Shown one piece after another: positions 3,775 through 40,614 of a stretch of DNA of 57,707 nt. This DNA comes from Chiloscyllium plagiosum (taxonomy: Eukaryota). The notes below the pieces were generated by a model. It ran no database searches, was not told the origin of the DNA, and saw only the letters and a program-made list of their open reading frames with translations. The position numbers and the translations under genes are program-made. Every line of letters starts with the position of its first letter. The stretch's first letter is position 1. The stretch spans positions 6,501,327 through 6,559,033 of the forward strand of contig NC_057749.1 in the NCBI RefSeq assembly GCF_004010195.1, given 5' to 3'.

Positions 3775-3911
3775 CTCAGGTCATTCCTGATGAAGGACTC
3801 TTGCCTGAAATGTTGATTTTCCTGCTCCTCGGATGCTGCCTGACCTGCTGTGCTTTTCCAGCACCACTCTTATCTTGACTCTAATCTCCAGCATCTGCAG
3901 TCTTCACTTTC
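3775..3911 (+). mobile_element. Short Penelope-type element (family D) with decayed hammerhead motif
   Basis: CTGATGA 3787-3793 and GAAA 3807-3810; 12-bp TSD acctggaggcac at 3763-3774 and 3912-3923. Confidence 0.75.
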
Positions 3912-3974
3912 ACCTGGAGGCACAGCCTGCAATGGTAGAGTGATTAAAATTAACAAAGTGAAAAATGCCAGAAT

Positions 3975-4562
3975 GTGACCATAAGACCTAGGAGCAGAAA
4001 TTAGGCCATTCAGCCCATTGAGTCTGCTCCGCCATTCAATCTTGGCTGATATGGTTTCCCAACCCCATTCTCCCACGTTCTACCCATAATCCTGGATCCC
4101 CTTGATCCCCAAGAACCTATCTATCCTAGGTTTAAATATACTCAATGACCTGGCCTCCACAGACTTTTGTGGCAATGAATTCCATCAATTCACCACTCTC
4201 TGGCTGAAGATGTTTCTCCCTATCTCCATTCTAAAAGGGCTTCCCTTTACTCTAAGGCTGTACCCTTGGGTTCCTGGTCTCTCCTACCAATGGAAATATC
4301 TTCCCAACATCTACTCTGGACAGGCCATTCAGTATTCTGTACGCTTCAATTAGATCCCCCCCCTGCCATCCTTAAAAATTCCATCGAGTCTACAAATTGT
4401 TCCTCATATGATAAGCTTTTCACTCCTTGGACCATTCTTGTGAACCTCCTCTGAACACACTCCAGGGCCAGTACATCCTTCCAGAGATATAGGGCCCAAA
4501 ACTGTGCATAATACTCCAAATGTGGTCTGACCAGACCATTATAGAGCCTCAGAAGTACATCC
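3975..4562 (-). mobile_element. CR1 LINE 3' fragment
   Basis: LYNGLVRPHLEYYAQFW...VQRRFTRMV plus CR1 3' tail. Confidence 0.9.
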
Positions 4563-5193
4563 GTGAGGAGTGTAGGTACTCTGGGAGAGTTGTGGGTCTG
4601 TAGGAGATGAATTCGGAGAGGCGAGGCAATGCAGGGATTGGAAAACAAGGGTGAGAATTTTAAAATGAGATGTTGCTTGACCCAGAGCCAGTTTCTGTCA
4701 GTGAGCAGAGGGGGAGCTTGGTAAATGGGGGATGGTGCGAACTGAGACACAGGCAGCAAGGTTCTGATTACATCAAGTTAATGGAGATTAGGAAGTGGGA
4801 GACCAGCCAGAAGCAAATTGGCACAATCATGTCCAAAGGACTCTAACTTTAAATATGCACTTTAATGAGAACATCAGTTCCCATTGTCAGCTCATAGCCG
4901 GATAGTGGGTGAATGGGCCTTGGTGCGAGTTTGGATAATGTGAGACTTGGTAATCAATGGAGTCACACACCTGGATTGCTGTGGAGTAGTTACAATTCAA
5001 GCCTCCCTCTACCTGAAATGGCAAAGACTTTGCCCTTCAGTCTATCACAACGTTACAAGGCAGTATTCAGGGATCACTGTTCACCATCAAAGTGAAACTG
5101 TCTTAAGGCAAGGACAAGAGACAGGATGCAGAGCATCAATGGCCTCCTGTAATCTTAGCCCTCAGTTGCCACCTTGAAAAGAGGGCTCAATGG

Positions 5194-5490
5194 TGTGACG
5201 ATGCTGCTCCTTTGCAAAATTACATTGTCCTTGGTGTTATTTTCAGAGGGGTTGTAAAGGCACAGGTTCCGACATGTCTGTGTTTATCCATTTGAAGAAA
5301 TTTCAAGTTTTTAAAAAAACCATGTTTACAATGAAATGGGAGTGGCCAGTTCTCCAAGCTCAGCTTTTCTCTGGTTTGTTTTGGTTTTAGTAGCTGCTGG
5401 TCAAGTTTTAGCTGGGAACCCAGAGAAGCTGCTGGGGACCCAAAGAAGCAGCTCCATGCTGATAGTCTCTCTCTCTCTCTCTCTCTGAAA
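5194..5490 (+). mobile_element. Partial solo LTR (~630-bp family), opposite orientation to the other copies
   Basis: Starts tgtgacgatgc; reverse complement matches 1-163. Confidence 0.6.
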
Positions 5491-5530
5491 TGTTTTGTGG
5501 GGGGGGGGGGGGGTGCAGTCGGGGTCTGCC

Positions 5531-5783
5531 TGGCCAATAGCAGTGGTTTGCACTGCTGCCTGACAGTACCATGGACTTGGGTTTGTTTCCAGCCTCAGGT
5601 GATTGCCTGTATGGATTTCCTCTGGGTGCTCTGGTTTCCTTCCTTAGTCAGGTTAGGTGGATCAGCCATGGGAAATGCAGGATAACAGAGATAGAGTGGC
5701 TCAAAATGGAATGCTCTTTGGAGGGTTGGTGTAGATTTGATGGGCTGAATAGACTGCTTCCACGCTGCCGGCATTCTATGACA
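5531..5783 (+). mobile_element. HE1-type V-SINE, degenerate
   Basis: tRNA-like head cagtggtttgcactgctgcc and CR1-derived tail. Confidence 0.8.
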
Positions 5784-5944
5784 TAATCTGAAGAGAGTGG
5801 CAGTTGGCTTTTGTTCTCCCTTTGGGTTTCAAAGCACTTCAGAGTGAATTTGCATTGACATAACAACTCATTATTCATGAAGGTTAAGTCACACAGGAAA
5901 AGGTTCACTCCTTTCTGAAGGAAATGGGCTGCTGGATAAAAGAA

Positions 5945-6259
5945 AATAGTTGCATTTACAAATCACCTTTGACAATCTCAGCTTGCTTTACAGCTAATGG
6001 AGCACTCTTGAAGTGCAGCCAATCCAGGAAATGTAACAGCTGACAAAAGCACAGCAAGCTCCCACTAAGACCAAGGAGATAATGACATGAAATCTGTTGT
6101 GATAATGTTGATTTAGTGATGATTAAAAGCTAGGGAGTGGGGATAATTTTTTCAAGCAGTGCCTTTTATGTCCACTTGAGAGAGCAGAGGTTGCCTCAGC
6201 CTTATAATTCTTCTAAAGAGGGTAGCCCAGGCAACACAACACCCCCATTTCCCTTCAGG
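5945..6259 (-). mobile_element. DeuSINE (SacSINE1-like) relic
   Basis: Resembles recalled Deu-domain (tccacttgagagagcagaggttgcctc) and tail (gcacagcaagctcccac); related copy at 22595-22870. Confidence 0.55.
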
Positions 6260-6275
6260 CTGGAATAGAATAGAA

Positions 6276-6491
6276 GAAAGTGAGTGCTGCAGATGCTAGA
6301 GATCAGAGTCGAGAGTGTGGTGCTGGAATAGCACAGCAGGTCAGGCAGCATCCGAGGAGCAGGAGAATCAATGTTTCAGCATTAAGCCCTTCACCACCCT
6401 TCCAGATCAAGGACCCATGCCTGAAACATCGATTCTCCTGCTCCTCGGATGCTGCCTGACCAGCTATGCTTTTCCAGCACCACACGCTCGA
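6276..6491. mobile_element. Inverted dimer of family-D Penelope-type element
   Basis: Arms ~6306-6377 and ~6423-6493 are inverted; direct repeat ctggaatagaatagaa at 6260-6275 and 6492-6507. Confidence 0.85.
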
Positions 6492-6585
6492 CTGGAATAG
6501 AATAGAACACCTCCTGGCTTAAAGGTGAGCCAAGACTGCCACCTCGACAATAGGACAAGGGACTTTATGTGGCTCAAGGACATAT

Positions 6586-7226
6586 TGTTATGGACTAGGC
6601 CAGACCACTCAAAGCATTCTTAAACAGACAGCTCCAGACCATAACTTTGCAATTTGTTTCGGTAAGTGTACAGTGAAAATTACCCTGAACAAGATAGTTA
6701 GGTTGACTACTAGATTTTAAATCAGACAAACATTTATTCACAGAATTACACAATGAAACACAAAGAACAGAAAAAAGAACCCCTACAGAACTCAGTCTAT
6801 CCAAACTAGACTTAATTATGCTGTCTCCACAACAGTCCCAAAAAGCAAACTCCCTTTAAAATGAGTATAAATGGAACACATGCTTATAGGTTGAAATTGA
6901 AGGACAGGAGGAGAGAGAGCAAGAGAGTTTCCACACAGGTCCCTGTTGAACTCCTTACCAATTCAGACTGAACTAAACCGCTCAGTTAGAGAGCTGACCA
7001 CTCCCCTTCCATTATACAGGTCACTTCTAAAACATGACCACTTTGGCCTGAAGTCTCATCTGTTTACATATAAACAAAAGGCCTCTCAAAATCCTTTTTC
7101 ATTTCTTTACCAAACCAGACTGATCGAACCTGGCCTGGTTTATTACCCCTCTGAAAAAGATCAAGGATAGAGTTTCCTTGAGCCAAGGAACAGCTTTTAG
7201 TAAAAAAAAAGACTAGCTTTGTGACA
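6586..7226 (-). mobile_element. Full-length solo LTR (~640 bp)
   Basis: tgttatgg...tgtgaca termini; AATAAA on the - strand near 6733; related to 44339-44966; no clean TSD. Confidence 0.7.
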
Positions 7227-7621
7227 CAGTGACCTGAATTCCCACAATTGCACCCTGAAGCATACTTTTCCTTCCTCATTACTACCTGTTTCTGAATGAT
7301 TAGTAACAAATCCCATGCCCTAACAATCTCATTTCAGCATGAGCACATGACAAAGATTTCCCTTGATATTGCCATGGTGGATGGCTAAGTCAAGGTCCTC
7401 CATTTGATGGTCAAGGCCACCTGGCTGCCACTCTGGCCAAGCAGATCTTACTGGCCTCGAAACTGACGGTGCTGACGATGTGTGAAGGGATTAGCATCTC
7501 TGGCAACTTTTACTGGGATAAACTCAAAACGTTGCTTTTTTGAACATGACAGTGAGTACAAACCTATCTTGCGGTCCACGTCACTTCAGAGCACTGAAAG
7601 GGTGAGTTTAACCCTTTATCC

Positions 7622-7912
7622 AAATGCCAGAGACTTGGGTTCGATTCCATCCTCAAGTAACTGTCTGTGTGAAGTTTGCACATTCTTCCCGTGTCTGTGT
7701 TGGCTTCCTCCGAGTGCTCCGGTTTCCACTCACAGTCCAAAGATGTGCAGGTTAGGTGGATTGGCCATGCTAAATTGCCTGTACTGTCCAGGGATGTGTA
7801 GGCTAGGTGGGTTAACCATGGGAAATGCAAGGTTACAGGGTGATGCTCTTCAGAAGGTCAGTGTGAAATCGATGGGCTTAATGGTCTGTATCCACATTAT
7901 AGGGATTCTATA
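7622..7912 (+). mobile_element. HE1-type V-SINE
   Basis: B-box gggttcgattcc and V-domain gtgctccggtttcc...cacagtccaaagatgtgcagg. Confidence 0.88.
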
Positions 7913-8140
7913 ATTCTGTCCCTTCTTTAGATCAAGGTTCATTGTTTAAATGTTTGCATGTGGGATGTACATATCAAGGGTGGCATGCAGTTCAAAGCTT
8001 TGTGACAAAAATCAAAGTTTAATACTATTTTTTACAGATTACAACCTTCCCATCAAACAAATTTCTACAGATAATAATTTCCAGTCAAAAGGTTACACAT
8101 TGACTATCCAACAGTATTCCCACAGTTTATATTCTAGGTT

Positions 8141-9024
8141 GCTGTGGTTCTGTTCGCCGAGCTGGAAGTTTTTGTTGCAAACGTTTCGTCCCCTGTCTAG
8201 GTGACATCCTCAGTGATTGGGAGGTCCTGTGAAGCGCTTCTGTGGTGTTTCCTCCGGCATTTATAGTGGCCTGTCCCTGCCNNNNNNNNNNNNNNNNNNN
8301 NNNNNNNNNNNNNNNNNNNNNNNNNNNNNNNNNNNNNNNNNNNNNNNNNNNNNNNNNNNNNNNNNNNNNNNNNNNNNNNNNNNNNNNNNNNNNNNNNNNN
8401 NNNNNNNNNNNNNNNNNNNNNNNNNNNNNNNNNNNNNNNNNNNNNNNNNNNNNNNNNNNNNNNNNNNNNNNNNNNNNNNNNNNNNNNNNNNNNNNNNNNN
8501 NNNNNNNNNNNNNNNNNNNNNNNNNNNNNNNNNNNNNNNNNNNNNNNNNNNNNNNNNNNNNNNNNNNNNNNNNNNNNNNNNNNNNNNNNNNNNNNNNNNN
8601 NNNNNNNNNNNNNNNNNNNNNNNNNNNNNNNNNNNNNNNNNNNNNNNNNNNNNNNNNNNNNNNNNNNNNNNNNNNNNNNNNNNNNNNNNNNNNNNNNNNN
8701 NNNNNNNNNNNNNNNNNNNNNNNNNNNNNNNNNNNNNNNNNNNNNNNNNNNNNNNNNNNNNNNNNNNNNNNNNNNNNNNNNNNNNNNNNNNNNNNNNNNN
8801 NNNNNNNNNNCCACTACAGCGGATAGCTGAAACTGACAACCGGAAGCGGCAGGTTCAGGCCACTATAAATGCCGGAGGAAACACCACAGAAGCGCTTCAC
8901 AGGAGGCTCCCAAGCACTGAGGATGTCACCTAGACAGGGGACGAAACGTTTGCAACAAAAACTTCCAGCTCGGCAAACAGAACCACAACAACGAGCACTC
9001 GAGCTACAAATCTTCTCACAAACT
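8141..9024 (+). mobile_element. Penelope-like element: 3' pLTR plus inverted partial pLTR, interior in N-gap
   Basis: 8141-8281 is the reverse complement of ~8847-8989; hammerhead motif in both copies; TSD tttatattctaggtt at 8126-8140 and 9025-9039. Confidence 0.85.
8914..8953 (+). ncRNA. Minimal type I hammerhead ribozyme motif
   Basis: GCA-CTGAGGA-T-GTCACCT-AGAC-AGGGGAC-GAAA-CGTT-TGC: intact core, stem II, 3-bp stem I, palindromic ACGT stem III; mirror copy on the - strand at 8177-8215. Confidence 0.75.
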
Positions 9025-9257
9025 TTTATATTCTAGGTTAGCACAATAGATTACTTTCCCCAACTATATCATAGATGTTACCATTTTAGGTATATCTTCT
9101 ATCTGCGGGCGTGAATCTGTAATTATCAGAAATCCTATTCTGTCCATTTTTCTCCTTTCAGTACCAAGCCAGATCTTCTGAAGCAAGGTAAGAGATATAA
9201 TGCAGAATGCAATTAACTTTATCTGGTCAACCAAGCCTCCTTTTGGGTTGTGCAGTT

Positions 9258-9537
9258 TTAGATTAGATTTCTTACAGTGTGGAAACAGGCCCTTCGGCCC
9301 AACAAGTCCACACTGACCCTCCGAAGAGCAACCCACCCAGACCCATTCCCCTACATCTAACACTACGAGCAGTTTAGCATGGCCAATTCACCTAACCTGC
9401 ACATTTTTAGACTGTGGGAGGAAACCCACGCAGACACAGGGAGAATGTGCAAACTCCACACAGTCAGTTGCCTGAGGCGCAAATTGAATCCAGGTCTCTG
9501 GCACTGTAAGGCAGCAGTGCTAACCACTGTGCCACCC
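9258..9537 (-). mobile_element. HE1-type V-SINE
   Basis: Head to aatctaatcta tail on the - strand. Confidence 0.9.
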
Positions 9538-9562
9538 TGTTTACCTGCTGCTTTAGTTAGAC

Positions 9563-9672
9563 TCTCTCTGGAGTGGGTTTCTTTTCGGGAAGGGCTTATG
9601 CCCGAAACACCGACTCTCCTGCTACTCGGATGCTGCCTGAACTGCTGTGCTTTCCCAGCACCATACTTTTCA
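9563..9672 (+). mobile_element. Family-D Penelope-type element, truncated
   Basis: gaagggcttatgcccgaaac; 13-bp TSD gctttagttagac at 9550-9562 and 9673-9685. Confidence 0.75.
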
Positions 9673-9689
9673 GCTTTAGTTAGACCCTC

Positions 9690-10110
9690 ATCATGCGACT
9701 CTTATTCCTATCATACTATTCCAGCCAATTGGGTTGCCTCCAGCACCATCTTATTTTTGATCTTTTTGTAATCATCTCTCTGCCTTAATTAATCAGATCA
9801 TATTCAGCTGTTGACACTTTACTCACACTGTCTGATACTTTTAGATCACCTGCAGAGACATTATCCAGCCTGTCCACACTCCACTCACACCATCTGTGCT
9901 TATCTTTTGAATCTCTTAATTTCCTGGAATTATCTTGCTTTTACCTCTCTGCCTATAAATTCTGTGCATGCGCAGTTCCCTCCACTTCACCTGATGAAGG
10001 AGCAGCTTTCCAAAAGCCAGCGCTTCTAAAAAAGCTGTTGGACTATAACCTGGCGTCGTGTGACTTTTGACTTTGTCCACCCCAGTTCAAGACCGGCATC
10101 TCCACATCGC
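9690..10110 (+). mobile_element. Penelope-type pLTR of another family, with decayed hammerhead
   Basis: CAC-CTGATGA-AGGAGCAGCTTTCC-AAAA-GCCA-GCG at 9988-10022, followed by ctgttggactataacctgg. Confidence 0.6.
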
Positions 10111-12144: not shown

Positions 12145-12272
12145 GAGAAAGTGAGGACTGCAGATGTTGGAGATCAGAGTCAAGAGTGCGGTGTTGGAAA
12201 AGCACAGCAGGTCAGGCAGCTTCCGAGGAGCAGGAGAGTCAATGTTTCAGGCATAAGCCCTTCATTAGGAAT
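12145..12272 (-). mobile_element. Family-D Penelope-type element
   Basis: Reverse complement reads attcctaatgaagggcttatgcctgaaacattgactctcctgctcctcgg. Confidence 0.8.
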
Positions 12273-13756: not shown

Positions 13757-14107
13757 TGTGGCAGCACAGTGGTTCAGTGGTTAGCACTGCTGCCTCATGG
13801 GACCTGGGTTCGATTCCAGCCTCGGGCAATTGTCTGTGTGGAGTTTGCACATATTCCCCGTGTCTGTGTGTATTACCTCTGGGTGTTCTGGTTTCCTCCC
13901 ACAGTCCAAAGGTGTGCAGGTTAAGGTGGATTGGCCACACTAAATTTTCTATGGTGTTCAGAGCTGTGTAGGTTAGGTGCATTAGTCAGGGGAAGATATA
14001 AGATAATAGGGTAGGGGGATGGTCTGGGTAAGTTACTCTTCAGAAGGTCGGTGTGGACTTGTCGGGCCAATGAGCCTATTTCTACAATGTAGGAATTCTA
14101 TTCTATA
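13757..14107 (+). mobile_element. HE1-type V-SINE (parental copy A)
   Basis: Complete head, V-domain and tail. Confidence 0.92.
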
Positions 14108-16023
14108 AAGTACATGAGGCAGCCCATTAATGTTCATGGAAGATCTTTGAAAGCATGTTCATTTAGACCCAGGCTGTTCAGACAAAAGCATTGATAGTGA
14201 AGATGGTCAAAAAGTTGGACTTGAGGAACGCAGGTATCTCAGAGTAGTAGGATGGGTTAAGATTGCAGATTAAGGAGTGGTCACAACCTTGAAGGGATGG
14301 GCAAACAAGGATGGGACGGGTTGTTATTGAGCTGACAACTGGTGTGGGCCAGCAAGTACAGGGCTGATGGATGTGTCGCATTTGGTAATGTTTAGGACAG
14401 TAACAGATGGGCCAGGAAGCAGAAGGAAGTGATTAATATGGTTGACAGAAGAACCAGAGGTGACATGAGGCAGCATTGTTTCAGATCAGTCAATCTTGCT
14501 CCAGAACACATCGCTTGAAAGCGTGATAGATGCACATCCAGTTGCAACATTCAAAAGGGAGATTGCCAAGTATTTGGAGGAACATAAATTACAGGTAATG
14601 AGGAGTGGCATTAATTATGATACTCTCCGAAGAGCAGATCTTGGAACGATGGGATGAATAGCATCCTTCTGCATTTTAACACTTTAATGTAGGACAACTT
14701 ACATAATACAGAGAAAAAAAAAATCACAAACCATTCATCAATTTGGCAGCCTGTGATCAAAATATAAGCAAAACTAGGGAAGAGAAAGGATCTGATCGTG
14801 ATAGGGAAATTGGAAGAAGAGATTTGTCTCAGTGGTTAGCACTGCTGCCTCTCAGCACCAGGGTCCCAGGTTCAATTCCAGCCTCAGGCTACTGTCTGTG
14901 TGGAGTTTGCACATTCTCCCCGTGTCTGCGTGGGTTTCTTCCAGGCTCTCTGGTTTCCTCCCACAGTCCAAAGGTGTGCAGGTTAAGGTGGATTGGCCAC
15001 ACTAAATTTTCTATGGTGTTCAGAGCTGTGTAGGTTAGGTGCATTAGTCAGGGGAAGATATAAGATAATAGGGTAGGGGGATGGTCTGGGTAAGTTACTC
15101 TTCAGAAGGTTGGTGTGGACTTGTCGGGCCAATGAGCCTATTTCTACAATGTAGGAATTCTATTCTATAAAGTACATGAGGCAGCCCATTAATGTTCATG
15201 GAAGATCTTTGAAAGCATGTTCATTTAGACCCAGGCTGTTCAGACAAAAGCATTGATAGTGAAGATGGTCAAAAAGTTGGACTTGAGGAACGCAGGTATC
15301 TCAGAGTAGTAGGATGGGTTAAGATTGCAGATTAAGGAGTGGTCACAACCTTGAAGGGATGGGCAAACAAGGATGGGACGGGTTGTTATTGAGCTGACAA
15401 CTGGTGTGGGCCAGCAAGTACAGGGCTGATGGATGTGTCGCATTTGGTAATGTTTAGGACAGTAGCAGATGGGCCAGGAAGCAGAAGGAAGTGATTAATA
15501 TGGTTGACAGAAGAACCAGAGGTGACATGAGGCAGCATTGTTTCAGATCAGTCAATCTTGCTCCAGAACACATCGCTTGAAAGCGTGATAGATGCACATC
15601 CAGTTGCAACATTCAAAAGGGAGATTGCCAAGTATTTGGAGGAACATAAATTACAGGTAATGAGGAGTGGCATTAATTATGATACTCTCCGAAGAGCGAT
15701 GGGATGAATAGCATCCTTCTGCATTTTAACACTTTAATGTAGGACAACTTACATAATACAGAGAAAAAAAAAATCACAAACCATTCATCAATTTGGCAGC
15801 CTGTGATCAAAATATAAGCAAAACTAGGGAAGAGAAAGGATCTGATCGTGATAGGGAAATTGGAAGAAGAGATTTGTCTCAGTGGTTAGCACTGCTGCCT
15901 CTCAGCACCAGGGTCCCAGGTTCAATTCCAGCCTCAGGCTACTGTCTGTGTGGAGTTTGCACATTCTCCCCGTGTCTGCGTGGGTTTCTTCCAGGCTCTC
16001 TGGTTTCCTCCCACAGTCCAAAG
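13887..16023 (+). repeat. Tandem duplication with units of 1062 and 1050 bp
   Basis: 13887-14948 is repeated at 14949-15998; copies differ by a 12-bp indel and at least 2 substitutions. Confidence 0.97.
14826..15170 (+). mobile_element. Chimeric HE1 SINE at the duplication junction
   Basis: 5' half matches copy B (15876-16023); 3' half matches copy A. Confidence 0.92.
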
Positions 16024-16155
16024 ATGTGCAGGTTAGGTAAATTGGCCATGCTAAATTGCCCATGGTGTTAGGTGCATGAGTCAGAGGGAAATGGGACTGG
16101 GTGGGTTACTCTGCGGAGGGTTGGTGTGGAAACAGACTAAGGGCCTGTTTCCGCG
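15876..16155 (+). mobile_element. HE1-type V-SINE (parental copy B)
   Basis: Head, V-domain and aatctaatctaa tail. Confidence 0.92.
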
Positions 16156-18524
16156 CTATAGGGAATCTAATCTAATTAAACCCGATGTGAGGGAAGTTTA
16201 AGGCATGCAGGAGTACTCCTGGTACACAAATAATCCCACAATATAACATTAGCATGGAGCTTCCGAGAGCTCGTTATTTGACATATTTACAGTAGTTCGA
16301 TTTCTCTTTTCTCATTCACCACGCTTAGCTTTAACAAATCATGCCTGGCTGAGCAGTCAACAGTGAAAGTAAAATCACATAATTGTACACTGAACGATTG
16401 ACCAATATAGTAACTGGACTGGACCCTGAGGAGTTTTGTGAAAAGGCTTGTTCCCCCCACCTCACCCCACAAAACCCCCGCCCTTTTCACAAGTAGCTGG
16501 AATAAGGTGCCAGGCCTTTTCTGATCTCTAGGTACAGCCCCGCCTGCCCCCACCCCCCCGCCCCACCCCCCCACCCCCACCCCTGACATTCAGCAAGCTC
16601 AATTAATAATATATTTACCCACCAGTCAGGAAGGTTACCAGTTGAAAGGAGCCATTGTAGCTTTCCTTGGCCAATGGTCTTCCAGGAGCTAAAGTGTGAC
16701 AATTCCTGTTTGCTGCACAAGAACTACAACTTGCTTTAATTCATGTTCCTCCTCTCTCTACTCCAGTCCACAATTCCCAAGTGAATCTCAGAAAGAAAGT
16801 CAAATTTACAGTCTGGCCAGAGCGCCAACACATGCTTAAAGAGATGTGCTTCATGTTGTGGACTCCTGGCCTAATGTGCTTTTCCTTTGGCTTATTTCTG
16901 CTTTTCTAACCTTCACTTGCTGGCTTTAACCATCAGAGGTGCCTCAGTGGGTAGCGTTCTCACCTCTGGAATAAACGGTTGTGTGTTCACTTTCCACTTC
17001 AGGAAGTTTTGTGAACAAATTCAGGAAGGTGTTTGGAGCTCGATTTGCCAAATTTCGATCCAGAGAGTGAGACTGAGCTTTGAAGGAGTTGTAAAGTGAA
17101 TGGTAGTGGATTAGCTATTAACTACACATGCTAGCAATGTTGCCTTCAATCATTTCAGACCTCTGCCAACACATGGATGGGGAGCTCAGTTGGCCAAACT
17201 CACCTCCAATCTCTACCAGCATCATGCCCAAGACAGAAAAACGTGAAACCAATGTAGGAGAATGTAGCTGTTGGATACCATACTCTGTATACTCACAGAC
17301 AAGTAGAAGAAAGAGCAGAACTGCTCATTACAGAGTCTAGCCAGCATTTGGACAAATGGAAAAGGTCATATGAAAAATGTTGTAAAAACAGTGAAATAGA
17401 AATGAAAGGATTAACTACGAGGGCAGGCTTTGACATTCTCATCTTGTCTTTGAGTGAACGACACATTTATTCACATCGAGGTGAAATGTTAAAAGTTTCT
17501 GTTGTATTTGCATACTAAATTCTGGTTGGAGGAAGGATTTAGCTAAAATATATATTGAATTCTGTCTCTAAAAACAACCAAGGCATTTCTGCATGCACAC
17601 AAAAGAGGTTGTGATAATTTTAAAGAGACTGAAATAGACATCTCAAAGATTGCACATCACTGGTCTAATAGAATCTAGTCTGCTTGCATTGGGTGATATC
17701 ATAAATCATGAACTCCAAGATTAAAGTCTCTGCTATTTCATTATTCTCAGTACATGCTTCAACTAATGTGGGTGTTTTGCTCAGTGTTGGGGCCTATTTG
17801 TTGTGGTAGCAGCTCTTGTCATCAACGGTGCTGTTTCCACGGCCTGTCATTGACTTGTGATGTTGACACAGCAGGTTTAGTGCCTGCTGTGTTATTATGG
17901 GTCACACTTGCAGGAGTAATCTTCAACTGATTCCTCAGGAAAATTCACTCTCAGGAAAATTAGTGGGTACCCATGGGACAATCTCATTGGTCAGATAGCC
18001 ATGAGACGTTTCCACACCTTCCCGAGATTTTGAATCCATCTCACTGGCCAGCCAGTGAATAAGGGAGAAAAACAGAAAATAGAGGGCTGTGTTAAATCAA
18101 TGCTTATTATAATTACCCAGTTCTTCCTTGAGATTTCTCCTGTGCCTGTCTGATGCTTTATAATAAAAAAAATCTATGAAGGTCAATATTTTTATGAAGA
18201 ACTTGCACCTCACAGAAAGGGTTTTGGTTCAATCTATAGCCAACAGCCTGCTGTGAAAACTCTGCATGCATTTTGACAGCTATGACAATCCACAACTGTA
18301 TAAAACAGCCAGAATTCTAAATAAACCAGGCCAAACCATTGAGCGAAGAAGGCAGTTTGTCATATCTCCCAAAATTAATGGAACCTTTCAAAAGAAGTCA
18401 AGGATTTGCATCTGAATCCACATTTTCATCAAAAAGGAGTCAGCTCTTCCTTGGGTGATGCCTATCTACATATTAAATTTAGTTGGAATTTGACTATTTC
18501 TTATTTAGATATACTGTTTGTAGT

Positions 18525-19325: not shown

Positions 19326-19352
19326 AAGTTCCAGATAAAGATTATTAAAAAG

Positions 19353-19638
19353 TGAGCTTGGAAAAGATTCATAGCTCAGGTTAAGATTTTGTATGTAGAT
19401 TTGCTCGCTGAGCTGGAAGGTTCATTTTCATACGTTTCATCACTATACTAGGTAACATCCTCAGTGAGCCTCTGAATGAAGCCCTGGTTATGTAGCCCAC
19501 TTTCTACTTATATGCTTGAGTTTCTTGGGTTGGTGATGTCATTTCCTGCGTAACATCATTTCCTCTGTTACCTCGTATGGTGACGAAAATGTCTGAAAAC
19601 GCACCTTCCAGCTCAGCGAGTAAACCTACATCCAGAAC
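19353..19638 (-). mobile_element. Penelope-like pLTR with inverted partial copy
   Basis: 19566-19638 is an inverted copy of ~19387-19457; TSD tattaaaaag at 19343-19352 and 19639-19648; same family as 8141-9024. Confidence 0.8.
19429..19466 (-). ncRNA. Minimal hammerhead ribozyme motif
   Basis: Minus strand CA-CTGAGGA-T-GTTAC-CTAGTATA-GTGAT-GAAA-CGTA-TG; intact core, GUA triplet, stem I only 2 bp. Confidence 0.6.
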
Positions 19639-20074
19639 TATTAAAAAGGACAGGGATTCAGAAAGTTAATTGCACAATTATTTCTTAATAATCATTGACT
19701 GTCGGGTTCAGTCTGTGGAAACAAACCATTTAAGTGAAAATAAGTAGTCACCAAGTTCTTAGAGAATCCTCTCCCATTAAAGAGAGAAGAGTTATGGGGT
19801 TTAAACTGAGTGTCGCCACTCCTCAGTTCAGGGGAGAGATTGGAGAAGGTGATGCTTTCCTGGTCACCTCAACATTCCACTTGCCATTTCTCTAATAACT
19901 GAGTGCTGACTGTATAACACTGTCAAGGCATCTTTGGTATGCTGGGTCAAATCATATTTTATTCTGTATTTCGAATGTACTCAGGTGGAATATATGCTGA
20001 AGAGCCATTCTGTTATTTCCTTCATTACAAAGTATTTACTCAGGAACAAGCCATTCCACCCAACAACTCTATGC

Positions 20075-21075: not shown

Positions 21076-21239
21076 ACTAATTATGTCCCAATTTCAACAC
21101 ATTTATTTTGTTCTGGTAAATTTAATTTAGTTATTAATTAATAATTAACAAATTTTAATTAAACAAACTTAAGTTTGAATTTATAATGTAAAATTTAGGC
21201 AAAACAAATCTCCAAGAAAACATAACATTTGACTTGATA

Positions 21240-21412
21240 AAAACTGAAAGAACTGCAGATGCTGTAAATCAGAAGCAGGGTTCTGAGGAAGGTTCACTGG
21301 ATCTGAAACATTAACTTTGATTTCTCTTCACAGATGCTGTCAGACTTGCTGAGTTTCCCCAGAAACTTCCTGTTTTCATTTGTTTCAGATTTCCAGCATC
21401 TGGATTTCTTAT
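21240..21412 (+). mobile_element. Short Penelope-type element (family E) with hammerhead motif and short inverted ends
   Basis: AGGGTT-CTGAGGA-AGGTTCACTGGATCT-GAAA-CATT-AACTTT at 21277-21318; cagatgctg...cagcatctg inversion. Confidence 0.7.
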
Positions 21413-21421
21413 TTTTTTTAT

Positions 21422-25023: not shown

Positions 25024-25833
25024 GTACTTGTTTTCAGTGCAAATTCTGAATATTTACTTCATGCTAATCAGTTTAAACACGGTGCGCCTGAGTGTTCGGT
25101 AATGCTGCGTGTCCATAAGGTCCCAATGATGGATAAATCCCAAGTTGTAAGTTTGATTTGAGGTGTATTAAACACAAGAAGAATGAGAATAGTTAACTCC
25201 AGGTGTAGCTTGATGAGGGAAGTTGGTGCAGCATTGAATAAAAGTATTGATCAAAAGGCATGCATGCAAGAACCATTTGCTAGGTGGAGGATATATATAG
25301 CCCACTGACCTACGATTCTCTGCAGGTATGCAATAGTAGGTCAGCTGAGGACAGAGAACTAATGCCTGAGGAGCAACATTGTGAATGAAGCTTGTCACTG
25401 ATTCCGTGTAAATCTCCAATCGTTTTGAACTGGCAAGGAAGCATATCACTGGCACTAGCTTTTCCTGCCGCATGGCACTTTCAGACAGAAGCAGTTCCTC
25501 TCTGACGAGGAGCTGACAGAAGTTCTCTGCACTTTAAATTATCCATATCAGCACCAAGTCTGACCTTGTCTTCCGTACTCACCTGTTGAATTGTTTCCTT
25601 GTCTGTGGTGTCCAATTGGCCTTTTTGTTTAATTATCGATGTGCTTTCTGCTCTTGCTTAAGTGAGGGATCAAAAGGTAAGGGGAGAAAATGGGAACAGG
25701 AGACTGAGTTGAGTGATCAGCTTTGATCATATTGAATGGTGGAGCAGACTCGAAGGGCTGAATGGCCTACTCCACCCATTTTCTATGATTCCACGCTTTG
25801 TGGCAGGGAGGGAGTTGGATTTCTAGAGATTCT

Positions 25834-26135
25834 GGGACGGCACGGTGGCTCAGTGGTTAGCACTGCTGCCTCACAGGGTCCCAGGTTTGATTCCTACCTC
25901 GGGCGACTGTCTGTGTGGAGTTTGCACATTCTCTGCCTGGGTTTCCTCCGGGTGCTCCGGTTTCCTCTCACAGTGCAAAGATGTGCAGATCAGGTGAATT
26001 GGCCATGCTAAATTGCCCATAGTGTTAGGTGTATTAGGAGGGGAATGGGTGTGGTGGGTTTACTCTTCGGAGGGTCAGTGTGGACTTGTTGGGCCAAAGG
26101 GCCTGTTTCCATACTGTAGTGAATCTAATCAGATT
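25834..26135 (+). mobile_element. HE1-type V-SINE flanked by CR1 tail fragments (~25660-25790, ~26135-26250)
   Basis: ggcacggtggctcagtggttagcactgctgcc head. Confidence 0.9.
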
Positions 26136-27297: not shown

Positions 27298-27375
27298 TGA
27301 AAAATGTGTTGCTGGAAAAACACAGCAGGCCAGGCAGCATCCGAGGAGCAGGAGAATCGACGTTTCGGGCATAAG
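27298..27375 (-). mobile_element. Family-D element, 5'-truncated, with intact GCCC-GAAA-CGTC half of the hammerhead
   Basis: Reverse complement reads cttatgcccgaaacgtcgattctcctgctcctcgg. Confidence 0.8.
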
Positions 27376-27397
27376 GGCAAACAGCAAGAGCAGCAGA

Positions 27398-27761: not shown

Positions 27762-28200
27762 GAATGGCACAGTGACTCGGTTAGCATTGCTGCCTCACAG
27801 CACCAGGGACCTGTGTTCGATTCCAGCCTCGGGTGACTGTCTGTATGGAGTTTGCACATTCTCCCAATGGTAAAAACAGGGTAAAAACAATGATTGCGGA
27901 TGCTGGAAACCAGCCTGAAACGTCGATTTTACTGCTCCTCGGATGCTGCCTGAACTGCTGTGCTTTTCCAGCACCACTCTAATCTAGCCCCACGTTCTCC
28001 CAATGTCTGCGTGGGTTTCCTCCAGGTGCTCTGATATCCTCCCACAGTCCAAAGATGTACAGGATAGCTGGATTGGCCATGGGAAATGCAGGGTTACAGG
28101 GATAGAATATGGTGCTGTGTATGGTTGGGACACCCTTCAGAGAGTTGGTGTGGACTTGATGGGCCAAATGGCCTTCTTCCGCACGATAGACATCCTGTGA
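27762..28200 (+). mobile_element. HE1 SINE interrupted by a family-D element (27870-27990)
   Basis: 15-bp TSD cac(a/g)ttctcccaatg at 27855-27869 and 27991-28005. Confidence 0.88.
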
Positions 28201-34105: not shown

Positions 34106-34866
34106 AGTTAGAAATCTATGATGCCAACAGCGTGGGTTCAATTCCCACACCTGCTGAAAGTACCATGAAGGACTCACCTCCTCAACCTCTGCCCTCGCCT
34201 CAGGCACGGTGACCCTCAGGTTAAACCACCACCAGTCATCACTTTCTCTAATGAGAGAGAGTAGACTTATGTTCCAATTACCTTTCTATCTTCTTACCTT
34301 GGAGACCTAAGGGGATAGTGGTGCATTTAAATGTTGTGTTATACCCAAATGTGCAAATATAAACTGTGGAGGATAAAAAGAAGACTTGGTTAAGATATTG
34401 TATAATATAATAGTTCTGAGAAGGACAATGTTAAGAGTGCCATTAGCTCCACACACCCAATCATATTGTCTTGATGGGGTCTAAGGGGAAACTAGTTTGA
34501 GATCCTGATGGAGACAGATGTCCCATCATAGGCTAACCAGCCAATCAGGAGACAATCTATTTTTACCAGGCAGTAAATTACAACTTTGGGCAAGTTTCAT
34601 TTGTTCAGATTCGTTACTGCTTCATCCTGTACTGCTGTTAACCAAACACTTAATTAGACCGAGCATTGAAAAGAGGTTTTCCCACCAGAGGCTACCTAAA
34701 CCACTACTGTCCATTTCAAAGAGTAGAAAGGGAGTTTGGCTGATTCAACCCAAACTAGAAGCTGTCAGAGCTTGGTTAGACAAACCTTAAATTAATATTT
34801 CTGGCTTGCTTGGAGAGAATGATTAAGAAAGGTTTTAACAAATTTGCCCATCAGTACATTTAGCAA

Positions 34867-35320
34867 AGAGTCATAGAGTCATACAGCACTGAAACAGACC
34901 CTTCAGTCCAACTAGTCCATGCCAACCATAATTGCAAACTAAACTAATCCCACCTGCCTGCTCCTGACCCATATCCCTCCAAATCTTTTCTATTCATGTA
35001 CTTATCCAAGTGTCTTTTAAATGTAATTATACACTTACTCTGGAAGTTATTACTAACGAAAACCACCCTGTTTTTAAAACAAAAACTCCATAAATCCCTC
35101 ATTTCTTGTCTTAAAAATGTGCCCCCAGTCTTGAAACACCCCATCCTAGGAAAAAGACACCTATTATTAACACTATCTCTACCTGTCATGATTTTATACA
35201 CTTCTATCAGGTCACCTCTCAACCTCCTACACTCCAGTGAAAGAAAGTCCCAGCGTTTCTTTATAACTCAAGCCTTCCATAGCTGGCAACAACCTGGTGA
35301 ATCACTTCTGAACTTTTTGT
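34867..35320 (-). mobile_element. CR1 3' fragment
   Basis: MRGDLIEVYKIM...FKRHLDKYMNRK...GAGRWD. Confidence 0.9.
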
Positions 35321-36269
35321 AACATAAAGAAGGTGCTTTGCAGGAAGGTGTAAGGAAGATCAAACCAAGGAAAGAGAAATGAGCATGGCTGACTTGAGGT
35401 TTTGTTAATGATACCATCACATTTAATTACGTTAAGGGTGGTTCCTGACTATAACTATTCACGATAGCTTGTTTTCCTTGATGTATCCTTCACAGCTTCC
35501 TCTTTTTATGAAGCGATTACTCATAATTCTCCCTTTTGGGAAACTTTAAAGCGAAGCATGTGTTCGCAGATGGACTTGCAAAGGAGATCAACTCCAATGA
35601 TGCTTAACTGAACATACAAGCAATGACATTAATTACATTTCTATGTAGCGTTCAGTTGAAGAGAAAAGACATCCAGAGAGTAGCTGATAGTCTGTGGAAT
35701 GGTAACACGCTACACTGACACACAAGCTGCTTGTGTACTGCCATCTCTGCAATTAATTACAACAAGCTCTTTTAAATGATTAATGCTTTCTCCTTTATTA
35801 CTTTATGTATCACCAAGGGTGTATGCTATAAGGGGAAGGACTACCCTTTGACACCGAAAGAATGTGACGTATATAAACACTACACAAACGCTGAGAGGTG
35901 GTTTTAAATCGACGTTTTTGTTCTGTAAAGTCCTGCTTCCCTCTTGGACCAGCTATCTCTTTTTGAGTCAGAAATAATGTGGGCTACATAGGGTATGGGG
36001 AGAAAATGAGAACTGAGTTGGATGATCAGCTGTGATCACTGAAATCGAGGAGCAGACTGAAGGGGCTGAATGGCTTACCCCTGCTCCCATATTCTATGTC
36101 TCTATAGTTCTGTGTTACTGTTTAATTCCCTGCACAGTTTATGCCCATTTCATGCCTATCACAAGGAAGGATCTTATTGTGTTGCAGCACAAAGTGTGGG
36201 AAAAGGCAACTTTCACTTTTCTACTATCTTCGTCTGCACTAAAGCACCACCTTCAAACTCCATCACCTC

Positions 36270-36437
36270 CATCACCTGGAGGAAAAGACACCTACTATTA
36301 ATGCTATCTATACCTGTCATGATTTTATAAACCCCTATCAGGATGCTTCTCAACCTCCTACGCTCCAGTGAAAAAAAGTCCCAGCCTTTCTTTATAAGTC
36401 AAGCCTTCCATAGCTGGCAACATCCTGGTGAATCACT
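36270..36437 (-). mobile_element. CR1 fragment closely similar to 35149-35306
   Basis: Shared ggaaaagacaccta...cctggtgaatcact. Confidence 0.8.
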
Positions 36438-36488
36438 GCTTCCTCATCACCTGGAAGACTGAGGAAGGTGGATGCATGGTATAGTGAT

Positions 36489-36784
36489 TGTAATGTGGTC
36501 AGCCAGATGGACATCAAAGAATATAAGTTCCCTGACTGGGGCTGTTAACCTGGTCCAATCAGGGAGCGCTGGCTGGCAGATACAAACAGGAGTGTACTAC
36601 CGCAGTTAGGCGGTAGTGTGGGGGTTAATAAAAAAAAAAGAGAGAATAAAAAACAAACAGGAGTGTCAGAGGTTCAGTTCACTGAGAGCTGGCTCTGAGG
36701 AAGGTGGATCGGTCTCGAGGACACTCCGTGTGCAAATAATGGGTGACTTGGTGACTAGATACTGGCCTCTGTGGAGATATTTCA
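36489..36784 (+). mobile_element. Short solo LTR with a 57-bp internal retro-insertion
   Basis: tgtaat...tttca termini, CCAAT at ~36555, TATA-like position at ~36580, aaataa at ~36735. Confidence 0.6.
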
Positions 36785-36924
36785 CACAGCAATGCCATCA
36801 ATTTGTTCTTTAATTCACTCAGCCATGCTGCCTTCAATATATAACACAGTTCCTTCATTATTGCTAGGCAAATATCCTGGAAATTCCTATCATATTTTGC
36901 TTCTGTCGGTCCCATTTCCCCCCA

Positions 36925-37058
36925 ACATTCCTGATGAAGGGCTTATGCCTGAAACATATCCTCTTCCGCTCCTCAGATGCTGCCTGACCTAATGTTCTTT
37001 TCCAACACCACACATTTTGACTCTGACTCTCCAGCATCTGCAGTGCTCACTTTCCCTC
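36925..37058 (+). mobile_element. Family-D element with hammerhead motif
   Basis: CTGATGA-AGGGC-TTAT-GCCT-GAAA-CATA at 36931-36958. Confidence 0.8.
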
Positions 37059-37826
37059 TGCTTCTCCAAACAGGGTATTTCCAGACTTAAATGATGGACT
37101 GCTTCAGTATTAGTTGATAGATTTAGTATCCATATTGTGACTCTAGCAACTAGAGTTTGGTTTCAAGACAGCAGTGTCACAGTTAGACCATCCCTGGCCT
37201 TGGAAGAGGCTTTGAATGTATCACCAGGGAATGCACAGTAGTTCTGAGACTGAGTGGTAAGCATTGAGATATGATTCTGTTGTAATATGGCATGGATTCC
37301 AGACCAAAGAGACGTGTAAGATAATTATGACATCAATGTATTTGATATTCGAGTCTCACGATACAAACTGACCTCACCAACAGTCACTGTGTGTAATTTA
37401 ATCAGTGTGGTATCTATAGTTAGTCCATTGCATGTGTGTAATATTCTGTACTATCAGTAAACACAGATCCCAGACAATGTAAGTCTGTGGTAGCATGGTC
37501 ATGTTTAGTGTTATAAGCAAACTTCAAGATATCTGACTCTAAAGAACCTGACTATCTGTGGTATATGTTACATGGACTAACATTTATAAAACCACAAATG
37601 GCTTCAGATTCCATGGATATTAGTAGGTCCTATAAGGCTTTCTCCAATGTACATTCATCTATCCCCCCTCATGTCAATAAGTTTTTCCTCATTTTTTTAA
37701 CTTCCTGGAGAATACAATAACCCTTGAAAGGAATGTCCTGTGGAGGATGTTGCTAAGCAGAAGGTGATTGTCCTTAACTTTCGTTCTCAGATTTAAATAA
37801 ACAAAAAGTCACCAGAAGACATTTAC

Positions 37827-38110
37827 GGGCGGCACGGTGGCACAGTGGTTAGCACTGCTGCCTCACAGCACCAGACACCCAGGTTCAATTCCCGCCTCGG
37901 GCGACTGTCTGTGTGGAGTTTGCATGGGTTTCCTCCGGGTACTCCGGTTTCCTCCCAAAGTGCAGGTTAGGTGAATTGGCCATGCTAAATTGCCCGAAGT
38001 GTTAGGTGAAGGGGTAAATGTAGGGGAATGGGTCTGGGTGGGTTGCTCTTCAGAGGGTCGGTGTGGACTTGCTGGGCCGAAGGGCCTGTTTCCACACTGT
38101 AAGTAATCTA
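37827..38110 (+). mobile_element. HE1-type V-SINE, young
   Basis: Intact head gggcggcacggtggcacagtggttagc. Confidence 0.93.
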
Positions 38111-39509
38111 AAGACTGAAAACTGGGGGAGTCAAAAGATTCATGAACCTGAGAGAGAACAATGATGGCGAGCAAAAGTTTCAGTGAAACATATATTGCAA
38201 GAGTAGGACTCTGGTCATATCAATGGAAGCCTGTTTTGTGTGGGGAACAGTCACCACATTGTGACCTCAATGAAAATAGTTGGTCAATGTCCAAAGGACA
38301 AACATGTCATCCATAAGATGTAGGCTCAGAAGCAGCTCATTCAGTTCATTAAGTTTGCTCCGCCATTCAATGAGATCATGGCTGATCTGATAATCCTCAA
38401 TTCCACTGCCCTGCCTTGTTTCTCATAAAGATTATTGAAGATGGGCTCTTGAAACTCGAGCCAATAGGAGGCCCCCACCTCCCAATGTTAGAAAACACAG
38501 CAGCTTGACCTTGATCATGAGAGAGAGTCCACAGCTTTAGTTTGGAGACTTCTCAAACACACTAACTTGCAATTTAAAAACAAGAACTGTGGGCCAGAAT
38601 TGTGGAAGCTCTCTACACGGTGGCTTGGGTCTGCACAAGGTGTCTTGACAGAGCATAATGGGGACAGACTGTTCCCATTGGTGAAAGGGTCTGCAAGGTT
38701 AAGGCACAGCTTTAAGATGACTGGCTGAAGAAGCTACAGCAACATGAGGAGCATGTTTCCCATGAAGTAAGTGCATTTACATTGAACAGTAGAGCACAGG
38801 AACAGGCCCTTTGGCCCACCATGTGTATGCTGACCATGATGCCATTCTAAACCAAACCCATTTGATGTTACGTATTCTGCTCAAAGTTTTATGGCATTCG
38901 AGAGTGTGGTGGAGGCAGATTCACACGAGACATCAGAGAGAAATGTGGAGTATAATCTGGAAAGGAAGACTGTGCAGGAGAAGATGAGGTTGTGACATAA
39001 GGGGTGCATTGTTCCTTATGTAACAGCTCTGTGATTCTGAAACAAGTTGGTGCCCACCAACTTGTTTCAGAGAACCTCTCGGTGTCCTGGTCTGCCACCC
39101 GAGACCTTCCACCAATCAGCCATGCTGCATCACTCACCTCCCATGATTCCAGTCAACATCAAATAATAAGGCCTCATATGGGGAGGTGGGAAATGGGGGC
39201 TGCTGGTGTATTCCCATTGAATGTTCAGTCCTCAGTTTCCATGTGATGATGGTAGGCAGGAGAGAAGTGAGATTAGGAAGCCAACTTTTAGTCTCTGTCA
39301 CTTTATTGAAGCCTAAAGTGAAGTTGATAAACTGCAGTAGGCTGTTCCTGTTGATCTTTCAGCATTGCCCATTCTCACATCCCAGTCTAAAACAATAACA
39401 CCTCGTCATAACATTAACTTTAACAATGTTCTTCGGAAGACTTATTTCTTCCTGCTGCTCGTGTGCCATCTGACCTTCACAATGATTCCCTCACAGTTTT
39501 TACCCAAGT

Positions 39510-39900
39510 AGCATTGGATTGGATAGACTGGCATTGTTTTCCTTGGAGCAGAGGAGATTGAGAGGGAACATGATAGAGATTCTGCGGGACATCGCGTAGA
39601 CAGGAAGAATTCTTTTCCTCTTGGTGGAGGGATCAACGACCAGGCCATAGATATAAGGGAAGGGGCATAAAGTTTAAAGGAGACATGAGGAAAATCATTT
39701 TCACCCAGGACGGTGATGGGAGTGTGGTACTCACTGCCTGTAATGGTGAAAGAGGTAGAACAATTGAGAAGTATGCAGATGTGAAGACTATGGGCCAAGT
39801 GCTGGAAAATGGGATGAGAATAGTTAGATAGTTATTGTTTTACCAGTGCAGACTCAATGGGCTGAATGGCTTTTCTCTGTGCTGTAGACATCTATGACTC
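39510..39900 (+). mobile_element. CR1 3' fragment, degenerate
   Basis: ccttggagcagaggagattgagaggg...gtgctgtagacatctatgactc. Confidence 0.8.
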
Positions 39901-40267
39901 CGCCATATAGTATCTGCTCATTAAGCTCACAACAAGCAATAAAGTACCACGACATACACATACACATACACATACTGTGATTGAACATCCAATTTCTTTT
40001 GCACAAATCCACACCCTGCCCCCCCACCTTTATGAGGCTGTTAAGTGAGTGGGGTTGGAGAGCCAGTGGGCATAAATATAACCTGGCCATCCATGGACAA
40101 AATAGGACTCTTGCTCCTATTTATAATTCACTGGCCTTGCCTAGGGTAGTCAAAATTAAGGAGAGGACAGTTTTTTTCAGCAATCCAACATGCACTGTTC
40201 AAATATAAAAGACATGCTTGGCTCTCCTGTTGGGCAATGTTAGTAATACTACCTCAGGGTCAGGAGG

Positions 40268-40614
40268 AGACAAAAATACAAAATTGTTGGCAAAGATCAG
40301 CCGATCTTGCAGCATCTGTGGAGAGAAATCAGAGTTAACAATTCAGATCCAGAGTTCTGAGGAAGGGTCACTCGACCCAAAGCATTAACTCTGATTTCTC
40401 TCCACAGATGCTGCAAGATCGACTGATCTTTGCCAACAATTTTGTATTTTTGTATTTTTGCCATCAGAGTTAACATTTCAGATCCAGAGTTCTGAGGAAG
40501 GGTCGTTCGACACTCTGATTTCTCTCCATAGATACCGGCAGACCTGCTGAGCTTTTCCAGCAATTTCTGTTTTTGTTTCTGATTTACAGCATCCTCAATT
40601 CTTTTGATTTTTAT
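40268..40614 (+). mobile_element. Family-E Penelope-type composite: 68-bp inverted repeat plus tandem second unit
   Basis: Arms 40271-40338 and 40385-40452 with 1 mismatch; CTGAGGA-AGGGTC twice; TSD tcagggt(c/t)aggagg at 40254-40267 and 40615-40628. Confidence 0.85.

Follow-up and report, generated by a model that had tools for sequence, protein, structure and literature searches.

What are the short, dispersed repeats with hammerhead-like cores that recur in a stretch of the Chiloscyllium plagiosum genome, and which machinery moves them? The stretch analysed (57.7 kb of contig NC_057749.1, positions 6,501,327 to 6,559,033 of the forward strand; hereafter the window) has a G+C content of approximately 42% and holds 56.1 kb of non-N sequence. 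An initial annotation had proposed that four families of repeats, here termed D, E, F and G, carry minimal type I hammerhead ribozyme motifs on short, mostly non-autonomous retro-insertions of the Penelope-like element (PLE) kind. Our analysis of the sequence supports this proposal: the repeats are likely to be short PLE-type retro-insertions bearing minimal type I hammerheads and mobilised in trans by a PLE protein. The assignment to PLEs is drawn from the four hallmarks of minimal hammerheads taken together with the scars of PLE insertion.

The occurrence of the hammerhead core was assessed against shuffled sequence. A loose search for CTGANGA-N(4-30)-GAAA returned 14 matches in the window, compared with 6.55 ± 2.48 in 100 shuffles, none of which reached 14. 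A more demanding descriptor, combining a single bulged base, 4 bp or more of stem II with no more than one mismatch and the GAAA motif, was controlled with 500 dinucleotide shuffles. This descriptor identified five sites (8917+, 8213−, 19464−, 21283+ and 36931+) where 0.118 ± 0.35 were expected and the shuffle maximum was 2. All five are followed by C-[G/A]-T-H, which was not part of the query. When a perfect stem II and an exact palindrome were stipulated, the site at 19464(−) alone was retrieved.

Comparison of the window with itself by BLAST, together with a covariance model, produced an inventory of 15 hammerhead-related segments in 12 insertions. Minimal hammerheads of metazoan PLEs are marked by compensatory changes, an unpaired base between positions 9 and 10.1, a G10.1-C11.1 pair and a palindromic 15.2-16.2 (Cervera and De la Peña 2014, PMC4209133). 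These hallmarks were not imposed by the search of that study, and all four were found among the window segments. An unpaired base follows A9 in 13 of the 13 segments that keep the 5' half, being A in families D, E and G and U in F. Position 10.1 is G in every one of the 15 segments and its partner is either C (seven segments) or U (eight); the U is attributed to a C-to-T change at the CpG formed by C11.1 and G12, position 11.1 reading T in 8/15. At positions 15.2 and 16.2, CG is present in five segments, the CpG-decay forms CA or TG in eight and GC in one, and the pair is deleted in one.

Stem II differs in sequence from family to family: GGGC/GCCC in D, GGGTC/GACCC in E, GTCACCT/AGGGGAC or GTTAC/GTGAT in F and GGAGC/TTTCC in G. 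In the 15-row alignment of window segments, 61.6% of cells are paired, compared with 50.7 ± 2.7 for shuffles; covariation scores 0.381, and the shuffles 0.217. Neither value was reached by any of 500 shuffles. Sliding the partners by 1 to 3 columns reduced pairing to 48% or less. The signal is strongest in stem II, where 74% of cells are paired and both sides change in four of the five pairs. Within helix I of family F, one pair is C-G at one locus and A-U at the other. Stem covariation, whose absence from consensus sequences had been named in the annotation among the grounds for abandoning the idea, is present among the window segments. The pairing of stem II across families likewise holds as covariation, with the reservation that GTCACCT/AGGGGAC contains one A.G mismatch, and the pairing of stem I reported for family E is evident at the copy beginning at 21238, where helix I forms 7/7 pairs.

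Every location given in the annotation holds a member of the family named for it; the list was incomplete, however, having missed the F copy at 8213(−) and the second, inverted arm at the 19464 locus. With 12 loci in the non-N sequence, the density is one per 4.7 kb, in agreement with the earlier figure of one copy per 4-5 kb. The insertions, with their target duplications, are as follows.

3775..3910, + strand: family D, single long-form copy; core 3787-3814 with 12/12 letters, predicted cut after 3814, one A.C mismatch in stem II; target duplication 3762-3774 / 3911-3923 (12/13 letters match).
6276..6491, left arm −, right arm +: family D, head-to-head pair; left remnant 6405-6360 with a 32-nt tail, right remnant 6395-6440 in the short form; target duplication 6260-6275 / 6492-6507 (17/18 match).
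8141..9023, both strands: family F, two head-to-head arms flanking the N run 8282-8810 and 95% identical over 145 nt; hammerheads 8213-8180 (−) and 8917-8950 (+), each with 12/12 letters and an unbroken CG; 34-nt tail at the right end only; target duplication 8125-8140 / 9024-9039 (15/16 match).
9563..9672, + strand: family D, short form; 5' junction in place of CUGANGA, stem II GGGC/GCCC and GAAA intact, 8/12 core letters; target duplication 9550-9562 / 9673-9685 (16/17 match).
9985..10110, + strand: family G, single decayed copy; CTGATGA at 9991-9997, bulged A, stem GGAGC/TTTCC (4/5 pairs), AAAA for GAAA, GC, and C for U16.1; target duplication not found at this locus, and no second G copy in the window.
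12147..12272, − strand: family D, long form; core 12268-12241 reads CTAATGA, 11/12; no clear target duplication found.
19353..19638, both strands: family F, head-to-head pair; longer − copy with intact hammerhead 19464-19431 and a 33-nt tail, + copy 19566-19638 5'-truncated within stem II; target duplication 19343-19352 / 19639-19648 (TATTAAAAAG, 10/10).
21238..21420, + strand: family E copy; hammerhead 21283-21312 with 12/12 core letters, helix I fully paired as above, one mismatch in stem II.
27301..27375, − strand: family D, short form, 5'-truncated within stem II; GCCC-GAAA-CGTC intact and both CpGs kept.
27870..27990, + strand: family D, short form, inside a tRNA-derived short interspersed nuclear element (SINE); 5' part resembles an inverted piece of the 3' end; target duplication 27855-27869 / 27991-28005 (14/15 match).
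36926..37054, + strand: family D, long form; hammerhead 36931-36958, 12/12, stem II GGGC/GCCT; weak 9-bp target duplication.
40268..40614, both strands: family E, compound insertion; inverted 5'-truncated arm 40268-40352 and partial + copy 40340-40462 with hammerhead 40357-40386 (10/12); target duplication 40254-40267 / 40615-40628 (13/14 match).
40463..40614, + strand: second + copy of the same compound insertion; core deleted, tail of ~34-35 nt at the right end only.
50620..50700, + strand: family E 3' fragment, 5'-truncated and without a hammerhead; 90% identical over 60 nt to 40545-40604.

The original description of the families requires amendment. Families D, E and F are each represented by several copies; family G is known from one decayed copy and is on that account unverified as a family. 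Furthermore, the families had been described as otherwise unrelated, whereas E and D can be aligned over 109-136 nt at 62-69% and the box TTCCAGC is common to D, E and F, 13-45 nt past the predicted cut (D 3856-3862; E 40556-40562; F 8963-8969 and 19412-19418(−)). TTCCAGC might be a protein-recognition signal, or it might reflect plain common descent.

The anatomy of the insertions supplies the most powerful of the new evidence. Target duplications of 10-17 bp were found at 7/12 loci, compared with 47 of 1000 random pseudo-loci (4.7%) scored under the same criterion of at least 10 matching letters; the previously reported range was 10-16 bp. The 12147 and G loci lack a clear duplication and that at 36926 is weak. 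At four loci (6276-6491, 8141-9023, 19353-19638 and 40268-40614) an inverted, 5'-truncated copy abuts the 5' end. The paired outer ends at these loci differ in the length that follows the predicted cut: 93 and 61 nt at D6276, 39 and 73 nt at F8141, 78 and 45 nt at F19353, and 69 and 104 nt at E40268. An extra tail of 32, 34, 33 and ~34-35 nt, respectively, is therefore present at one outer end only in 4/4 head-to-head loci. Opposite-strand joints at the same points recur in other genomic copies, in 7-15 contigs of sequencing run X1 and 9 of X9, a run from another organism. One partial tandem was observed (40340-40614, family E), and the ~40 nt preceding the hammerhead of the E copy at 21238 repeat the 3' end of the element itself in reverse complement (21237-21277 against 40614-40574, 83%).

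These features match those described for PLEs; the inverted arms, the tandem and the one-sided tail had played no part in the initial annotation. In the portion of PMC8557442 available to us, PLE insertions are characterised by 5' truncation, partial tandems of the pseudo-long terminal repeat (pLTR), an inverted 5'-truncated copy, a tail of 30-40 bp that is often present at one end, and a hammerhead located in the pLTR. For PAc, a PLE of Anolis carolinensis, the tail has been shown to be the stretch between two adjacent internal start sites of the reverse transcriptase (RT), situated in an AC-rich stem-loop (Frangieh et al. 2024, PMC11167929). Two alternative 3' ends exist in each of D, E and F; among D copies the post-cut length is either 58-66 nt (four copies) or 93-98 nt (four copies). 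In both D and F the short end follows an AC-rich run beside a small stem-loop.

The 529-base N run at 8282-8810 fills exactly the gap between the inverted F arms. Inverted PLE structures are reported to break assemblies, according to the accessible text of PMC8557442, and the run may be an assembly gap of this kind.

Overall, the units begin a few bases upstream of the hammerhead and end 39-108 nt past the predicted cut. Three of the D copies in the window start at (C)ATTC, 4-5 nt before C3, with no homology upstream, and four X23 contigs (142-3435 nt in length) match only from 36926, 36927 or 36929 to 37049 or 37054. This 5' limit, common to the window copies and the X23 contigs, favours a dedicated unit of ~130 nt, or ~95 nt when untailed. 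In family F the element continues for at least 105 nt on the upstream side of the core. The sequence TATAAAT lies 53 nt before C3 in both arms of 8141-9023 (8864-8870, with its mirror near 8255), and a TATA-like box precedes the core by ~45-55 nt in each of the three longer F copies (also at 19505-19519). The box is consistent with a promoter in a pLTR, and F may be the pLTR end of a longer element.

The abundance of the families was considered from summed read depth, which is not a copy number and is taken here only as tens of thousands-fold over unique sequence. On D it amounts to 389,173 in run X1 and 1,043,547 in X9, against approximately 2-50 in repeat-free bins; on E it ranges from 167,782 to 389,406 (X1). 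This suggests a very high copy number in two related organisms. Contigs of X9 carry unique flanks that differ by ~2-3%, and they extend into D by 22 nt and into E by 31 nt; because they span the joins between flank and element, that D and that E insertion are probably common to both organisms and old.

How might such insertions arise? In the scheme we propose, a PLE protein with RT and GIY-YIG domains, encoded elsewhere in the genome, would nick the target, and the RT would start at either of two internal RNA sites ~32-35 nt apart, yielding the short and the tailed 3' ends. Template or strand switching, or second-strand events, would produce the head-to-head and tandem forms. The hammerhead, having no helix III loop, would be active only once one copy has paired with another at the palindrome centred on C15.2-G16.2; such dimer pairing in tandem or read-through transcripts, probably together with the element's protein, would trim the RNA, and the hammerhead would be retained in master copies for its action at the RNA stage. 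Dimer cleavage of minimal hammerheads was described by Lünse et al. (2017), as summarised in the available part of PMC6765202. When segments were cofolded, predicted homodimers were 3.0-9.0 kcal/mol more stable than two monomers and the contact for F8917 was the palindrome around C15.2-G16.2, which is compatible with the dimer model but is not proof of it. Family D, and probably E, would be dedicated non-autonomous units of ~95 or 130 nt. The template could be a promoter-defined transcript or a religated circle, either of which would fit.

Several observations weigh against the assignment to a working PLE-type hammerhead system. The recurrence of CTGANGA-hairpin-GAAA-CG T H claimed in the annotation holds as an enrichment, but the complete 12-letter core is present in only 6/15 segments (D36931, D3787, E21283, F8917, F8213− and F19464−). 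The remaining segments keep 6-11 core letters, the losses being mostly CpG decay, a deletion, and 5' junctions or truncation: CUGANGA is replaced by an inversion or truncation junction at D 6397(−), 9584, 27375(−) and 27897, and GAAA was removed by a deletion at E40492. From this we infer that most window copies are old and dead, their core CpGs lost or the copies truncated at birth. In favour of the motif at the level of the family, a consensus of loose read ends before 36968 (411 RNA reads, agreement 0.75) keeps GGGC...GCCC, GAAA and CGTC, so that the family-wide D sequence has an intact 3' half. Helix I is weak: 52% of its cells are paired in total, and it spans 7 bp in E but 2-3 bp in either D or F. 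Single-copy RNA folds were no better than shuffles (z −1.19 to +0.55), with no rod-like or hammerhead fold among them. A scan of the window with Rfam models matched no hammerhead family, either at the gathering score or at E values up to 10; this silence is expected of a motif without helix III, yet it lends no positive support. A covariance model built from the 15 segments recovered just those 15 (next match, E 0.41), and the G copy at 9991, with 26.6 bits, is itself a seed.

Further points on the same side concern the gene, the template and the RNA. No PLE RT/GIY-YIG open reading frame (ORF) was found in the window when 81 ORFs, left after 13 overlapping N runs were dropped from the 94 that measure 90 aa or more, were scanned against Pfam. 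Two ORFs gave RVT_1, and the RT concerned (56609-57707, −) belongs to a long interspersed nuclear element (LINE) of the apurinic/apyrimidinic (AP) endonuclease type. The elements of the window are consequently at most non-autonomous or truncated. Because the D copies start upstream of the hammerhead, a simply cleaved linear RNA cannot be their template. In a poly(A) single-cell RNA run, a library ill-suited to the purpose, D reads were even across strands (203 and 225) and no position had piled-up starts or ends. The reads look like passive transcription, and neither a dedicated transcript nor cleavage is visible in this type of library; for PAc, too, public RNA-seq contained no reads ending at the cut site (PMC11167929).

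Candidate structures that were set aside include a rod-like, viroid-like fold of family E (61% self-complementarity), which was no better than its shuffles. Rfam matches to RRE, mir-7094, mir-680, mir-2007 and MIR528 proved to be the head-to-head hairpins at 6320-6480 and 40316-40407, that to mir-7094 being the family E hairpin.

Turning to other explanations, the insertions could be ordinary, severely 5'-truncated ends of full-length autonomous PLEs, that is, solo pLTR pieces without any dedicated unit. We regard this as unlikely, while acknowledging that PLE insertions are known for heavy 5' truncation (PMC8557442, in the part consulted), that most dispersed minimal hammerheads have been described as "probably related to truncated PLEs" (PMC4209133) and that the copies at 27301-27375, 19566-19638 and 50620-50700 are cut at differing points. 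The upstream reach of family F is also readily accommodated. Random truncation would not, however, leave three window D copies and four X23 contigs with a common 5' limit 4-5 nt before C3, and the read depth of D and E fits a SINE-like unit better. A circular template, by comparison, would account directly for a start upstream of the hammerhead combined with a fixed downstream end, since one round on a circle would yield both; the insertions might then be monomer offspring of non-LTR retrozymes, which form tandem arrays with self-cleaving transcripts and a circular RNA template. A 2026 preprint, as far as its available text goes, ties vertebrate retrozymes to PLE pLTRs and reports retrozymes in its one chondrichthyan genome (10.64898/2026.07.22.740005). 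Retrozymes are nevertheless defined, in the section of PMC7229834 at hand, by type I hammerheads of the canonical form, whose loops contact each other, and by tandem repetition of 150-450 bp units, whereas here canonical hammerhead models match nothing, the helix III loop is missing from every copy, the units measure ~95-130 nt, and the window contains one partial dimer and no array. We consider a retrozyme origin improbable.

The remaining explanation would dispense with PLEs altogether, the repeats being LINE-dependent SINEs or foldback or miniature inverted-repeat transposable elements (MITEs) among DNA transposons, and their hammerhead-like words fortuitous. Such an origin would suit the very high copy number, the abundance of AP-endonuclease LINEs in the window and the several loci that combine inverted arms with target duplications. 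The details speak otherwise: the duplications vary between 10 and 17 bp, whereas their length within a DNA transposon family is fixed; one arm exceeds the other by a constant 32-35 nt, and the two form no symmetric terminal inverted repeats; and single-orientation copies (3775-3910) also carry target duplications. Nor is there an A-rich or microsatellite tail, or a tRNA, 5S or 7SL head, and the motif is both 40-fold enriched and covarying. This explanation is in our judgement very improbable. Retro-insertion by a PLE protein acting in trans remains the reading that we favour.

The window is dense in interspersed repeats, with tRNA-derived SINEs (8-11 copies) and LINE tails, and contains N runs at 2313-2411, 8282-8810 and 41713-42657. 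The tRNA-derived SINE is the dominant family, represented by 37817-38120 and at least eight other copies (for example 14828-15170, 25825-26135 and 50020-50330), with a read depth of 2.2-2.8 million in run X1. Hundreds of reads in the RNA run extend into poly(A) directly behind 38102-38112 of this SINE, so that many of its copies terminate transcripts or prime internally. Among other copies, family D is joined at its 3' end (37054) directly to the 5' start of the SINE (37827), in 21 contigs of X1, seven of X9 and one of X23, and a comparable joint exists for the end of family E. The adjacency could be an insertion preference or a composite element. Local repeats that involve SINE sequence are also apparent: 13766-16180 is a duplication with a spacing of 1050-1062 bp, in which two 300-nt blocks, SINE copies included, are 93-100% identical, and 52691-52962 comprises five tandem 52-bp units from the SINE body (GTTAGGT...GCCATGCTAAATT).

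The sole RT of the window (56609-57707, −) has relatives with AP-endonuclease domains, the nearer named ones being from sharks and rays. It lies in the 3' part of a LINE (56093-57707, −), whose RT relatives of the AP-endonuclease type include those of bird, turtle and shark. The 309-nt tail of this LINE recurs in inverted orientation at 42713-43021 (93%), and further copies of the tail are found at 48123-48296 and 49065-49229.

Searches for related sequences beyond the genome gave nothing that fits. Among metagenome contigs a 26-mer had no matches and a 20-mer matched 17 loci, none fitting the model, which are chance matches in microbial contigs; a 27-mer had no matches among prokaryote-genome contigs. 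A search of the literature yielded no paper on such hammerhead motifs in sharks, and among the matches listed no title on chondrichthyan transposable elements concerned ribozymes. PLEs themselves are known in the elephant shark and the whale shark (PMC4350176 and PMC8455134, in the passages available).

How do the window elements relate to systems already described? Minimal hammerheads were reported in 2014 in thousands of copies in the genomes of fish, coelacanth, frog and reptile (PMC4209133). The likeness is close: the order is type I without a helix III loop, stem II is 4-7 bp and helix I short, several consensus families share a genome, and most copies are dispersed singles with some opposite-strand pairs 100-700 bp apart. 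Cartilaginous fishes, however, are not among the genomes named in that study; the depth observed here, although no copy number in itself, would point to a total well above the 4,000-9,000 copies that the study singled out as remarkable; and family D, unlike the minimal hammerheads of that work, has a discrete unit of ~130 nt. The minimal hammerhead/PLE system has thus been known since 2014, and what is possibly new is the apparent copy number together with the very small discrete unit.

PAc, which is a PLE of the Poseidon clade (PMC11167929), resembles the window elements in that its hammerhead lies tens of nt upstream of two 3' sites whose spacing makes an optional tail. The RT start in PAc is 85-92 nt past the cut, and the 3' ends here lie at 39-69 nt (short) and 73-108 nt (long). 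Cleavage of PAc required protein, yet was dispensable for insertion in vitro. Unlike the window elements, which have no ORF and are known from sequence alone, PAc is an autonomous element with an ORF that begins within the hammerhead. Non-LTR retrozymes are similarly small, non-autonomous and hammerhead-bearing, are thought to depend on PLEs and have target duplications of more than 4 bp (PMC7229834 and the 2026 preprint, within the text available); the three features that these partial sources ascribe to them, namely canonical hammerheads held by tertiary contacts between loops, 150-450 bp units arrayed in tandem and circular RNAs, were not seen in the window. The schistosome Sm-alpha and Sj-alpha elements, as far as the excerpts of PMC6765202 and PMC6155905 describe them, are likewise short SINE-like retroposons with a hammerhead near the 5' end and very many copies. 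Theirs, by contrast, are canonical type I hammerheads active as monomers and accompanied by an RNA polymerase III-type promoter, those excerpts indicate, where the form here is minimal and of the dimer type.

A bolder proposal, which is possible but which we hold to be rather doubtful, is that D and E are PLE-driven SINE-like units of ~95/130 nt, that the minimal hammerhead serves as their "head", that amplification in two or more shark-like species has brought them to roughly 10^5 copies and that TTCCAGC is the signal for the PLE protein. If true, no described genome would hold a larger population of minimal hammerheads, and the fixed 5' end upstream of the cut would imply a template other than simply cleaved linear RNA. 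Our understanding of how these ribozymes work is unchanged by the present analysis. For the PLE-type reading itself, the consequence would be that cartilaginous fishes join the lineages with minimal hammerheads on Penelope-type retroelements, apparently at very high copy number. The PLE "tail" signature would moreover be readable straight from insertions of 100-350 bp, offering a simple route by which orphan repeats may be assigned to the PLE machinery without a nearby RT gene.

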